From positions 130,710-194,709 of the forward strand of contig JBMNOE010000002.1 in the NCBI GenBank assembly GCA_050942895.1: a stretch of 64,000 bases of DNA, written 5' to 3'. How positions within the stretch are numbered: position 1 is the first letter of the stretch; each line of letters starts with the position of its first letter. Source of the stretch: Christensenellales bacterium. Its GTDB lineage: Bacteria > Bacillota > Clostridia > Christensenellales > UBA1750. The translations under genes were made by a program, and so were the position numbers. The notes below the pieces were generated by a model. That model had not been told where the DNA came from, searched no databases, and was given only the letters and a program-made list of their open reading frames with translations. Shown here piece after piece: positions 44,042-57,466 of this stretch.

Positions 44042-44638
44042 TTAAAAGTGGCGAAACCTGTATATGCTTTGCGGAAGCAATGCGCAAACGAAAGCTGAAT
44101 AATGTGGCCCGAAGGACAATGAGATCAGGCGCGGTCCGCCCCCGGAAAAGCCGTTTAAGGCTGAAAACTCTCCCATGGGCTGTGAAAGCCCGCGGGAGGT
44201 ATATTTTATATAGCTCTCTTTAGCGCTCCAGATGTCAAAAAATACTTTTTCTGCCTCATTGCTTCTGCTGCCGCCTTTGCAACAGCGTTCCACCTTCACA
44301 TATTCATCAGGGTGAAAAAACCGCCGGGCAATGGACAGAAAGTCGCACTCTCGGTGCTCCTGGACATCAAAACCAACCGGGCGGCCGTGAAAGGCGCATG
44401 CCCAATACTTCCCGCTGTGGGATATGGAAAAATGAACTCCGGGCATGAAGGGAAAAAAGGGTTTCCCGTAAACCCCTGTTTTTATGGAAAAATCCACGGT
44501 TTCTATGCCCCGTAAGCCTGCGTAATGCTCTGCAGCCCTCAGCAGGAGCTGGCGGCTTGTATGTTCGCTTGAAACACAGCACTCGTAAAGGGCTATGTCG
44601 TTTTCACTAAAGAAAATGCTTCCGGTCAAGTGCATCAC
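44042..44638 (-). CDS. Sfp-type 4'-phosphopantetheinyl transferase.
   Basis: GKPFF...HFSISHSG, FDVQEH and WSAKESYIK motifs. Divergent from the NRPS gene. Confidence 0.85.
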   Translation of the reverse strand: MMHLTGSIFFSENDIALYECCVSSEHTSRQLLLRAAEHYAGLRGIETVDFSIKTGVYGKPFFPFMPGVHFSISHSGKYWACAFHGRPVGFDVQEHRECDFLSIARRFFHPDEYVKVERCCKGGSRSNEAEKVFFDIWSAKESYIKYTSRGLSQPMGEFSALNGFSGGGPRLISLSFGPHYSAFVCALLPQSIYRFRHF

Positions 44639-44729
44639 TCCATCAACATTTTATATTTTTACTTGGATATAGTCAAGAAATAATCGAGAACTGATCAAAA
44701 GATCAAAAAGTCAAAAAGTCTGTTTTAGG

Positions 44730-47700
44730 ATGGTGAATTCATTGGAGCGCGACCTGTATCCCCTTTCCAGCAGCCAAAAAAACATATGGAATCTGTCCAA
44801 GGTTTATCCAGGCACTCCGATGAACAATGTCTGCAATGTCCTTAGAATCTCCGGTGCCTTTGAGCCTTTCTTGCTTCAAAGATGCATCAAAGCTCTCTAC
44901 GCTGCATTTCCAGCGCTCACCACCAGGATCGCAATAAAAAACGGCATTCCTATGCAGCATCAAAGCCGCCTTTTTCCGGTGGAGGCTCCCTTTTTGGACT
45001 TTTCGAAGGAAAGCAGCGGCGAAAGTCTCAAGCAATGGGAAAGCGCCGTCGCCCGCGAGCCAATTTCAATTGAAAACTCGCCTCTTTCATTTTTTTATAT
45101 TTTTAAAGCCGGCGAAAGCAGCGGCGGGGTCATGATGAAGCTCCATCATATAATAACCGATGCATGGTCACAGGTGCTTTTGAACAACCATTTGATGCAT
45201 AATTATAAGCGGTTGATGAATGGAGATGAGCTTGACGAAACAGAGATGCCGTCATATGAGGCTCATGTCGAAGCCGAGGGCGAATATATTGACTCCGCAG
45301 CCTTTGAAAAGGATATGAGCTATTGGGCCCGGCGCATACAGACTCTGTCCCGGCTTCAGGCGGGGGATTTCACCGGCCTTTGCCCATCTACCGAAGCAAA
45401 GCGCAGCGAGTTTCTGTTGCCAGCCGGCCTCAGCCGGGGGATTCTTGACTTTTGCCGCGAGGGGAATATATCGCCCTTCACGGCGATATACATGGCCTTT
45501 GCAGTCTATCAGCTTCGCGTTCATGGCAGCAATGTATTTCCGATAGGCGTTCCCAGCATAAACAGGGTGAACCACAGGCGCAAGCAGACCCTCGGCATGT
45601 TCGTCAACACACTGCCCTTTTTCACCGTTATAGATGAAGCGGACTCAAGCGCCAACTTCAGCACCCTTTGCGAAATGGTTAAAAACGATTGGTTCTCGCT
45701 GCTGAGCCATCAGCGTCTGCCATATGAGAACATAAAAAACCTGGCTCCCTCGGGCTCAGGCAATCTTTTTGATGTGGTTCTCTCATACCAAAACGGCCGT
45801 TTGGACGATAACCTTGACCCGCGCGTGAGTTTTTTAGGCGAATGGATCCACAGCGGCCATCAGGCGGAGAGCCTTTGCATGCACATCAGCCATCAGGGCG
45901 CCGATGGGCTGCTCATATACTATGATTATCTTCCCCATGCCTTCACGGGCGCAGAAATCGCCGATATGCACAGGCATATGATCAACATACTTTCTGGGGG
46001 AATCAAAAGCCCTAAAAAACCCCTCTCGCTCCTTCCCATACTGGATGAAAGCGAGGAGCAACAGCTCATCTTCGGCTTTAACCAAACTGAAACTACTCAG
46101 CCAAGCGAGAAAAATATTGCCGAGGCTCTGATGAAAGCCCTCAATGAAAACTCCGGCAAGATTGCCGTTGAGCATGGCGGAAAAAGCTATAGCTATGGCC
46201 GGCTTAATGACGATGCGCTCATGATCGCCCGTGGCCTGGCGGAAAGATTCCCATCCGGCGGCAAGGTGATCGCCATATCGATGGAAAACGGCTATGAGCT
46301 GCTAACCTGCCTTTGCGCCGTCGCCCTTTCCGGGAACGCCTGGCTGCTGATCGACCGGGATCAGCCAAAGCAAAGGCTTGGCATTCTGCTGGCCCAAGGC
46401 GGCGCCAACCTGCTGATTTCCGACAGAGCATTTCCAGAAAGCCCGGGGGGCATCAAGCAGGTTCTCCCATCGTCTTTGGGCCTTGCAGGCGGGAGCCGTT
46501 TTTCCCCTCAGGCGCAGTCAACGCCGGAGGACATCGCCTATGTGGTCTGCACATCCGGCAGCACGGGTGTTCCAAAGGCCGTACAGGTGCCTCAGGAAAG
46601 CCTTTTGAATCTTGTTGACGCAATGCGCCCATTCTATTTGCAAAAGACTGTGCTGGCCCTGTGCAACATCGCTTTCGACGCATTTATGCTTGAAAGCGTC
46701 TGCACCCTCCTTTGCGGAGGGTCAATAGTAATACCGGAGGACGGCCACAGGCATGATCCCGCAAGGCTTGGCGAATATATATCAAAATACGATGTCGGCT
46801 GCTTCGCCTTAACGCCATCGCGCCTGCAGGCGTATCTTCAAAATGATGCCTTTTGCGCATCGCTGCGAAGCGTGGAAACAGTTATCTGCGGGGGGGAACC
46901 CCTCCCCGCCGGACTTGTGCGCCTGATGGCCAGGCATAGCGGCGCAGTTTTATACAACCAGTACGGCCCCTGCGAGGCGACTGTCGCCGTCACGATGGGA
47001 AGGGCCGCAGACCGCGATCCTGTCACCATAGGCCGGCCCATGCAGAACTGCCGCATATATATACTGGACGATAATATGCAGCCTCTGCCGGCGGGCTCCG
47101 TGGGCGAAATTTACATCGGCGGCCGATGCCTTGCAAAGGGCTATGCCCTTAAGCCGGAGCTGACGGCTCAAAGCTTTGTATCCGATCCCTTCCGCCATGG
47201 CGAAAGGCTTTATAAAACCGGAGATCTTGGCCGCTGGACAACTGAGGGCGAGATCATTTTTGCCGGCCGAAAGGACAGGCAGGTGAAGCTGCGGGGCCAT
47301 CGAATAGAGCTGGCCGAGGTGGAATCATGCCTGCTTTTGTTTGACGGAATCACAGCAGCAGTGGCCAGCATATATGAGGGCCGCCTTGTTGCCTATTACA
47401 CCTGCGATGGAATTGTGAATCCTGATGCTCTTTTGGCCCATGCCGCAGCGCATCTTCCCGCATATATGGTTCCCGTTTATGCCGCGCAGGTTGATGGCTT
47501 CGAATCGACCGCAAGCGGCAAAATCGATTATAGACAGCTTCCGGCGCCCGACTTGGGCGATAATAGCATTCCCGCGGATGACGTTGAGCGCAGGCTTCTT
47601 GCCATATGGCAGGCTGTGCTTAAAACAAGCGATATCGGCACCCGCACCTCCTTCTACAGGGCCGGGGGCGATTCCCTCAGCGCGCTGTCACTGGTCGCAT

Positions 47701-57194: not shown

Positions 57195-57211
57195 ACAGAG
57201 GAGGCCAAAGA

Positions 57212-57466
57212 ATGGATAAAAATGAAAAAAGCCTGTTTGATGCCATACAGGCCATAGTCTACGATGTGGCGGGCGTCAGAAATGTAACTATGGACACGGA
57301 CCTTGTCAGGGATCTTTCCCTTAACTCCTTCGATGTGGCCAGCCTGCTGAATGCAGTGGAGGGGCATTTTGATATGGAGATCCCCATCAGGGATGTGTGG
57401 AGCCTGAACCAGGTGAAGGATATCGTTGAATATCTTTCTGTAAGGCTGAAGCAAAGAAAAAAATAG
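57212..57466 (+). CDS. Acyl carrier protein.
   Basis: 84 aa with the DLSLNSFD phosphopantetheine-attachment motif. AGAGGAGG RBS. Overlaps the ligase stop. Confidence 0.75.
   Translation: MDKNEKSLFDAIQAIVYDVAGVRNVTMDTDLVRDLSLNSFDVASLLNAVEGHFDMEIPIRDVWSLNQVKDIVEYLSVRLKQRKK

Follow-up and report, generated by a model that had tools for sequence, protein, structure and literature searches.

A dipeptide aldehyde-type synthetase cassette with an embedded histidine kinase and HD-GYP response regulator in a Christensenellales bacterium

The DNA analysed here, called the window throughout, is a stretch of 64 000 nucleotides (nt) from a Christensenellales bacterium (GenBank assembly GCA_050942895.1, contig JBMNOE010000002.1, positions 130 710 to 194 709 of the forward strand). 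Positions 44042–57466 of the window are occupied by six genes, and we consider it likely that they form a cassette of the Clostridia ‘dipeptide aldehyde’ family of non-ribosomal peptide synthetases (NRPSs), directing the synthesis of an N-acyl dipeptide aldehyde and coupled to a two-component system. Pfam and NCBIfam analyses of the open reading frames of the window identify a divergently oriented phosphopantetheinyl transferase gene, followed by genes for the NRPS, a sensor histidine kinase, a response regulator, an acyl-adenylating ligase and an acyl carrier protein (ACP). The six genes are listed below, with lengths in amino acids (aa).

44042..44638, minus strand: Sfp-type 4'-phosphopantetheinyl transferase (PPTase), 198 aa; Pfam ACPS 1e-12
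44730..52064, plus strand: bimodular NRPS, 2444 aa, C-A-T-C-A-T-R; Pfam and NCBIfam, open reading frame intact
52061..53896, plus strand: sensor histidine kinase, 611 aa; Pfam HisKA_7TM 6e-27, HATPase_c 4e-20, PAS_9 1e-4
53931..55481, plus strand: response regulator REC-DUF3369-HD-GYP, 516 aa; Pfam Response_reg 8e-16, DUF3369 9e-17, HD_5 1e-39
55527..57194, plus strand: acyl-adenylating ligase, long-chain acyl-CoA-synthetase-like, 555 aa; Pfam AMP-binding 2e-54, AMP-binding_C_3
57191..57466, plus strand: stand-alone ACP, 91 aa, serine in LNSFD; Pfam PP-binding 3e-9

The initial annotation of this locus, made from the sequence alone, had placed the PPTase, the NRPS, the ligase and the ACP correctly. 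It overlooked the kinase and response regulator genes, which together fill the approximately 3.4 kb that separate the NRPS from the ligase. The start codon of the kinase gene overlaps the NRPS stop codon by 4 nt, and the start of the ACP gene overlaps the stop of the ligase gene by 4 nt; therefore the genes from the NRPS through the ACP read as a single predicted operon, supported by these overlaps. In related loci recovered with the kinase as seed, the gap between the NRPS and kinase genes is mostly −4 to +50 nt. The likely true start of the PPTase is an ATG one codon further in, and its AusB/HetI-like NCBIfam matches are weak and under cut-off.

The domain order of the synthetase was obtained by running Pfam on the whole protein, where Condensation (2e-143), AMP-binding (2e-129) and NAD_binding_4 (2e-45) are found, and on five slices of it. 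Both confirm the order proposed by the initial annotation, namely condensation (C), adenylation (A) and carrier (T) domains in two successive modules, with a terminal reductase (R).

44748..46067, plus strand: C1, N-terminal condensation domain of putative starter type, aa 7–446; HHIITDAW at aa 139, Pfam Condensation 5e-60
46140..47549, plus strand: A1, adenylation domain, aa 471–~940; Stachelhaus code DALAIGQVAK
47589..47777, plus strand: T1, carrier domain, aa 954–1016; GGDSL serine
47850..49142, plus strand: C2, LCL-type condensation domain, aa 1041–1471; HHIISDG, Pfam 2e-84, TycC6 260 bits
49212..50618, plus strand: A2, adenylation domain, aa 1495–1963; Stachelhaus code DVTQILIVHK
50700..50882, plus strand: T2, carrier domain, aa 1991–2051; GGTSL serine
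50985..51866, plus strand: R, terminal thioester reductase of the short-chain dehydrogenase/reductase (SDR) type, aa 2086–2379; GATGYLG and YCKSK, Pfam NAD_binding_4 1e-46

The catalytic residues on which this reading depends are present. Both carrier serines and the A10 lysine of both adenylation domains are found in the window NRPS, and an alignment of 68 synthetases of the family reveals strong conservation: the HHxxxD motif of C1 is kept in 66–67 of the 68, the carrier serines of T1 and T2 are each present in all 68, and the GxxGxxG and YxxxK motifs of the R domain are unchanged in 68/68. The last domain had been taken for an SDR-type reductase, and its motifs and its best structural matches agree with this. 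Its closest solved structures are terminal reductases of NRPSs (6vtj, 1e-35; the AusA R domain 4f6c, 3e-32; MxaA, 1e-25), and the R domain is by homology a genuine thioester reductase. C1 is located at the N-terminus, ahead of the first A domain, with HHxxxD intact, which is the position expected of a starter domain. Compared with structures in the PDB, C1 scores 75 bits with the RzmA starter-C domain, 87 with TycC6 and 90 with Txo1, whereas C2 scores 32 bits with RzmA and 260 with TycC6; on these scores C1 is clearly divergent and not a plain LCL domain. In the stand-alone ACP, the carrier serine is present in 74 of 74 relatives, and the adenylation motifs of the ligase are conserved in nearly all of its relatives.

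These features are those of a known family. Like its characterized members (BGC0001686 and the rup cluster), the window cassette has a single C-A-T-C-A-T-R synthetase ending in a reductase, with a PPTase and an ACP as partners and a ligase for the acyl group, and the hosts are likewise Firmicutes/Clostridia. The gut-Clostridia NRPS family of (N-acyl) dipeptide aldehydes and pyrazinones was reportedly described by Guo et al. in Cell in 2017, and the ruminopeptin ‘rup’ cluster of Ruminococcus bromii is said to have been reported by Schneider & Balskus in 2018. Blautia producta ATCC 27340 (= DSM 2950) is presumably one source of the characterized clusters of the family. Two products are described in PMC8518294: N-octanoyl-Met-Phe-H, made by the Clostridium NRPS cluster BGC0001686, and the N-acyl Leu-Glu aldehyde ruminopeptin. 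The window cassette differs in that the PPTase gene is divergent and upstream instead of downstream, and its A2 code, one of about 40 variants in the family, could not be linked to a characterized product. The link to gut-Clostridia clusters for (N-acyl) dipeptide aldehydes, made in the initial annotation, thus holds: the same type of cassette is present in B. producta DSM 2950, Faecalicatena, Holdemania and Eisenbergiella and in many metagenome-assembled genomes (MAGs). By its sequence the locus is therefore not a novel type of cluster but one member of a very common and already studied family, and the condition under which the initial annotation would have given up its novelty is in effect triggered.

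The window proteins themselves are on record from a Christensenellales MAG and fall in clusters, defined at 90% identity, of only one to three members. NRPS homologues of the same length and architecture are found at 75% identity (two metagenome contigs), at 54%, at 43–47% and at 35–39%, several of their clusters having hundreds of members, and the nearest are from uncultured Christensenellales. When the genomic contexts of NRPSs 36–75% identical to that of the window were examined, a kinase and a response regulator were directly downstream in six out of six; in five of these the downstream DNA was long enough to look further, and the ligase and the ACP followed in four and are missing from the fifth. 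A second collection was assembled from the kinase side, by scanning a set of one genome per species with an alignment of six kinases, which yielded at least 587 matching stretches. Synteny was counted in the best 80 of these at least 587 loci, with denominators restricted to loci with enough DNA:

R domain 5' of the kinase: 76/76 testable loci
Full NRPS: 64/64 testable loci
Response regulator: 74/74 testable loci
Ligase: 70/70 testable loci
ACP: 68/68 testable loci

The layout C-A-T-C-A-T-R, histidine kinase, REC-HD-GYP, ligase and ACP is thus constant across the best 80 loci wherever enough DNA is available. As relatives from dozens of species have them in this same place, the kinase and the HD-GYP response regulator are, on the evidence of comparative genomics, integral parts of the cassette and not passengers. 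The position of the PPTase gene is less regular: it lies 3' of the ACP gene, on the same strand, in 44 of 63 testable loci; in the window, as in a few relatives, it is divergent and upstream. Among the hosts of the cassette are Blautia producta DSM 2950, Faecalicatena fissicatena, F. contorta, Robinsoniella, Eisenbergiella tayi, Holdemania filiformis, Pseudoflavonifractor, Zongyangia and Ihubacter, and many MAGs of Lachnospiraceae, Oscillospiraceae, Christensenellaceae, Erysipelotrichaceae and Anaerovoracaceae. Domain by domain, the window NRPS is 36–58% identical to the cassettes of named isolates, and identities to the B. producta locus (L006) range from 38 to 73%.

In the 75%-identical cassette L001, the neighbours are Asp23 and YebC, as in the window, and more distant cassettes are flanked by unrelated genes that differ from locus to locus. 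As the flanks vary between loci, the conserved unit is the cassette. The initial annotation had called it an accessory locus, a label to be taken as tentative; no related genome without the insert between Asp23 and YebC was found among the contexts fetched. A compositional island is also not apparent (GC 0.47–0.56 over the locus versus 0.50–0.56 nearby, without a clear anomaly). The different parts of the cassette evolve at very uneven rates, as a comparison of the window (kinase at 52061–53896) with L001 (kinase at 8758–10593) illustrates: the kinase is 91% identical, REC 97%, the ligase 89% and A2 88%, and C1, A1, T1, C2 and R are 70–75% identical.

The kinase is composed of HisKA_7TM, PAS, dimerization and histidine phosphotransfer (DHp) and catalytic (CA) domains, in this order, with the phosphorylatable histidine H379 in the motif IAHNLKTP. 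Its N-terminus (aa ~7–219) consists of seven hydrophobic segments joined by very short loops, according to hydropathy, and the H-box histidine is invariant in 84 of 84 relatives. The response regulator has a receiver domain (REC) with D63, a DUF3369 domain and a complete HD-GYP domain (GHSDRV, LLHDVGK, HHERYDGGGYPDGL), and a DNA-binding domain is absent. It thus carries the phospho-acceptor aspartate and all the metal-site motifs of the HD-GYP set. Its NCBIfam match, ‘response regulator c-di-GMP phosphodiesterase, NosR family’, is at 4e-62 and under cut-off. D63 is invariant among relatives, and the H..RV, HD and HHE..DG.GYP motifs are unchanged in 77–78 of 78. The predicted output is hydrolysis of cyclic di-GMP (c-di-GMP) and not DNA binding. 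Two forms were distinguished among the 78 response regulators: a long form of approximately 510 aa, with DUF3369 between REC and HD-GYP, to which the window protein belongs, and a short form of approximately 350 aa without DUF3369. The short form accompanies a subclade of cassettes with a GGDEF gene.

In that subclade, represented by 15 loci and by L087, which was fetched independently, a PAS-GGDEF diguanylate cyclase is encoded directly 5' of the NRPS and in the same orientation (for example, L063:412-2543, L079:468-2578 and L087:334-2461, with 13 more loci). In L087 and in 11 of the 15, a gene for a SARP-like regulator (Trans_reg_C + BTAD) comes before it, usually with an overlap. With GGDEF and HD-GYP in one cassette, these biosynthetic gene clusters encode enzymes for the synthesis as well as the breakdown of c-di-GMP. 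No GGDEF gene was found in the window by tblastn, and the SARP-like regulator is also absent from the window. In ten cassettes, a conserved protein of approximately 140 aa, absent from the window, is encoded after the PPTase gene on the same strand (e.g. L079, ~760 nt 3' of the ACP gene). At L087:15557-20675, a transglutaminase-like gene and T2SSF and T2SSE genes (a pilus or secretion platform and its ATPase) come after the PPTase gene in the same orientation; in this single case they are possible c-di-GMP-controlled outputs.

The order of events that these genes suggest is as follows. The PPTase would prime the ACP and both T domains, and the ligase would adenylate a fatty acid and load it onto the ACP. 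C1 would then move the acyl group to a first amino acid held on T1, which is probably large and aliphatic (Met or Leu, for example), and C2 would join a variable second amino acid. Release by the R domain would leave the N-acyl dipeptide with an aldehyde at its C-terminus, a warhead that acts on Cys, Ser and Thr proteases covalently but reversibly; a free dipeptide aldehyde that had not been acylated would be expected to cyclize to a dihydropyrazinone or pyrazinone. The membrane kinase, responding either to the aldehyde itself or to an external signal, would phosphorylate the response regulator and so alter c-di-GMP hydrolysis. Through this kinase-controlled hydrolysis, aldehyde production would be coupled to a c-di-GMP-controlled lifestyle switch.

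The 10-residue specificity codes of the A domains were read by alignment to a fragment of GrsA-PheA, which reproduces the code DAWTIAAICK. The strings FDAFMLE...YNQYGPCE and FDVFTTE...FNIYGPTE, pointed out in the initial annotation, are present in A1 and A2, and the codes extracted are DALAIGQVAK and DVTQILIVHK. Among the 68 synthetases, the A1 code is almost fixed as DAL[SA][VI]GQV[AG]K, and the A2 code is highly variable, with 40 variants; that of the window occurs in nine of the 68. As A1 is fixed and A2 variable, the family appears to keep residue 1 and to diversify residue 2, the aldehyde-bearing P1 residue. The conservation of the A1 code throughout the family makes a large aliphatic residue 1 (Met/Leu-like) probable, and the fixed code fits the Met/Leu-type first residue of both products in PMC8518294. 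In a comparison too poor for a substrate call, A1 agrees with a Tyr code at 6/10 positions and A2 with a Thr code at 5/10.

The ligase had been described as FadD/FAAL-like, FAAL standing for fatty acyl-AMP ligase, and only the first half of this label is retained. Its FadD-type NCBIfam matches are all under cut-off. The best solved relatives are CoA ligases, namely oxalyl- and malonyl-CoA synthetases and luciferases (1e-37 to 1e-24), and the FAAL 3pbk is matched at 1e-21 across 78 residues only; this ranking favours the CoA ligases. By homology the enzyme is a long-chain acyl-CoA-synthetase-like protein of the FadD11/COG1022 type.

Several observations weigh against parts of the reading given above. 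By homology the ligase is nearer to CoA ligases than to FAALs, and we infer direct loading of the ACP, rather than formation of a CoA ester, solely because the ACP gene is translationally coupled to that of the ligase. The R domain scores 177 bits with TIGR01746, where the curated cut-off is 213, and it could conceivably carry out a four-electron reduction, to the alcohol. The starter type proposed for C1 stands as regards its N-terminal position, its HHxxxD motif and its being nearer to a starter C domain than C2 is, but its PDB ranking (75 versus 87 bits) is only suggestive of the subtype. The A1 and A2 codes are absent from the supplement of PMC12283262, and the substrates are not assigned by look-up. 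The biosynthesis is predicted from domain logic, and the product from the genes. The identity of the family with the clusters of Guo 2017 and of Schneider & Balskus 2018 is drawn from reviews and from B. producta ATCC 27340 as the presumed source of one cluster. Finally, of three distant homologues of the sensor (27–34% identity), two are beside an NRPS and one belongs to a stand-alone kinase–regulator pair: at L086:6691-9841, a histidine kinase (34% identity) and a REC-HD-GYP protein are encoded, and no NRPS, ligase or ACP is found within 6–10 kb.

It may be asked whether the acylating genes take part at all. The synthetase could work like that of AusAB (aureusimine/phevalin, Staphylococcus aureus), making an unacylated dipeptide aldehyde that cyclizes to a pyrazinone, with C1, the ligase and the ACP dispensable or engaged in another pathway. 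The two systems share a dimodular NRPS, reductive release of a dipeptide aldehyde and a dedicated Sfp-type PPTase, the R domains are related (4f6c, 3e-32), AusA is the top NCBIfam match of the window NRPS, and many gut dipeptide aldehydes cyclize to pyrazinones according to reviews (PMC8210680, PMC12327764). However, the match to AusA (NF047350) reaches 1082 bits, far under the equivalog cut-off of 2500, and its alignment starts only at aa 791; AusA is A-T-C-A-T-R, without N-terminal C domain, ligase or ACP, and its product is unacylated and cyclizing, so that the window NRPS was not classified as an AusA. AusAB also has no embedded two-component system. Conservation of HHxxxD in C1, of the ligase and ACP genes across the testable loci, and of the adenylation motifs and carrier serine in nearly all relatives further argues against dispensability, and we regard AusA-like chemistry as improbable.

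What the kinase senses is the second point on which explanations diverge, and the family alignments bear on it. Within the kinase, it is the 7TM domain that varies most (mean distance 0.61 versus 0.34 for DHp). Divergence of each domain was compared with divergence of the A2 code, after subtraction of the mean of the other domains, by a partial Mantel test, which is unreliable for related sequences. For the kinase 7TM domain, the partial r is 0.25 overall, 0.30 in cassettes with the long response regulator and 0.33 in those with the short one, values reached by 0/300 permutations. This compares with 0.37 for the A2 domain itself, approximately 0 for PAS, DHp, CA, REC, C1, C2, R and ACP, and 0.24–0.40 for the HD-GYP domain. 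The same test gives no such correlation of the 7TM domain with the A1 code. At equal background distance, 7TM divergence is 4–10 points higher in pairs that differ in A2 code. This co-divergence hints that the aldehyde may be a signal sensed by its own kinase. Tentatively, the lipophilic aldehyde or a derivative of it could, as an autoinducer, bind the 7TM domain in the membrane, and the kinase, through the HD-GYP regulator, could lower c-di-GMP; such a circuit could, equally tentatively, be seen as an NRPS-based Gram-positive counterpart of Rpf/DSF, with an agr-like diversification of signal and sensor. The grouping of synthase, kinase and response regulator in one predicted operon, as in agr, com and rpf, the lack of a DNA-binding output, the variability of the 7TM domain, and its tracking of the A2 code about as strongly as the A2 domain itself, but not of the A1 code, all point in this direction, and the solo pair of L086 could eavesdrop in the manner of LuxR solos. 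The effect is modest, though; the HD-GYP domain correlates with the A2 code alike, without obvious reason; the kinases of the window and of L007 are only ~50% identical despite the same A2 code; and the solo pair fits a cue other than the product equally well. The alternative, which we hold to be possible without favouring it, is that the kinase and response regulator sense something unconnected with the product, either outside the cell or at its envelope (membrane stress, for instance, or a signal from host or diet), simply keeping c-di-GMP-dependent behaviour in step with expression of a protease-inhibiting weapon, and that the aldehyde acts outward only, on proteases of hosts or competitors. 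The published activities of the family are those of protease or proteasome inhibitors (PMC8518294, PMC8210680), a kinase–regulator pair exists without an NRPS, and further inputs from within the cell are suggested by the PAS domain and by the PAS-GGDEF partner. An external cue leaves unexplained why, in every one of more than 70 loci, the operon has the pair placed with the NRPS on one side and the acyl-loading genes on the other, and it does not account for the co-divergence of the 7TM domain with the A2 code.

The comparison with signalling systems is instructive in both directions. The Rpf/DSF system of Xanthomonas (RpfF, RpfB, RpfC and RpfG) likewise clusters the synthase of a lipid-like signal, a membrane sensor kinase, a c-di-GMP-degrading REC-HD-GYP protein and a fatty acyl ligase (PMC6337780), and RpfG interacts with GGDEF proteins, to which the PAS-GGDEF gene of the subclade operons may be compared. 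However, RpfF is a crotonase, in place of which an NRPS is found here; RpfC is a hybrid kinase with REC and HPt domains, whereas the kinase here is a non-hybrid 7TM-PAS protein; RpfB acts in signal turnover and the ligase here is most likely biosynthetic; and homology with the window is confined to generic domains. Membership of the Rpf system was rejected, there being no crotonase gene in the locus and no domains in the kinase other than HisKA_7TM, PAS, HisKA and HATPase_c; the resemblance appears to be functional and does not amount to membership. With agr (AgrBDCA), the cassette shares an operon that unites signal production with a polytopic membrane histidine kinase, and the hypervariable sensor of agr varies with the signal-specifying part, for which the 7TM domain and the A2 code would be the counterparts. 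In agr, however, a thiolactone peptide of ribosomal origin serves as the signal, and AgrA is a LytTR DNA-binding protein, in contrast to the HD-GYP output here; there is no sequence relationship.

The genes flanking the cassette are those that the initial annotation had recognized, the recG-yloV-yloU block upstream and a YebC-family gene downstream:

39662–41662: RecG, upstream flank
41669–43303: FakA/DAK2 (YloV), upstream flank
43344–43799: Asp23 (YloU), upstream flank
57601–58353: YebC, downstream flank

The rest of the window is ordinary chromosome, with genes for gyrase-type topoisomerase subunits and for arginine biosynthesis, and a tRNA gene (5588–5660, minus strand), the sole Rfam match in the whole window. 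At gathering thresholds Rfam thus gives no c-di-GMP riboswitch (GEMM) near the operon, and in six isolate loci it detects only a T-box; feedback on the operon through such a riboswitch was dropped as a candidate. A SPFH/flotillin-like gene (31292–32710, plus strand) is located in a stretch with an unusually high AT skew (0.23) and a GC content of 0.58. A perfect sigma-70 consensus (12/12: TTGACA, 18 nt, TATAAT) is found at 43991–44020 on the plus strand, just past the 3' end of the PPTase gene, which is on the minus strand; a transcript predicted from it would cross that gene antisense, heading towards the NRPS. Between the PPTase and NRPS genes, the motif (GA)TCAAAA(A)G is present in three tandem copies at 44693–44722. 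This repeat is a 34-nt insertion missing from the closest relative, the 75%-identical L001, and for this reason it is not a conserved operator.

As an NRPS cluster, the locus adds an uncultured Christensenellales member to an already mined family, useful for a catalogue of protease-inhibitor diversity but unsurprising. The reported activities of the family are inhibition of host and bacterial proteases and of the proteasome (PMC8518294, PMC8210680). The obligatory pairing with a kinase and an HD-GYP regulator, with an occasional GGDEF partner, may be the new aspect: no link of this NRPS family to HD-GYP, histidine kinases or c-di-GMP was found in the open full-text literature, whose coverage does not extend to the primary papers on the family. 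It is conceivable, if rather unlikely in our estimate, that the family serves primarily in cell–cell or autocrine signalling among bacteria, with aldehyde ‘dialects’ set by A2, a 7TM kinase as reader, a c-di-GMP switch joined by PAS-GGDEF in one subclade, and solo kinase–regulator pairs as eavesdroppers. If true, gut Firmicutes would have in this system an analogue of Rpf/DSF that is built on an NRPS, rather than primarily a host-directed weapon. The constant presence of a kinase and a c-di-GMP phosphodiesterase, sometimes with a cyclase, beside the synthetase offers a handle on the role of the aldehydes for the bacteria that produce them.

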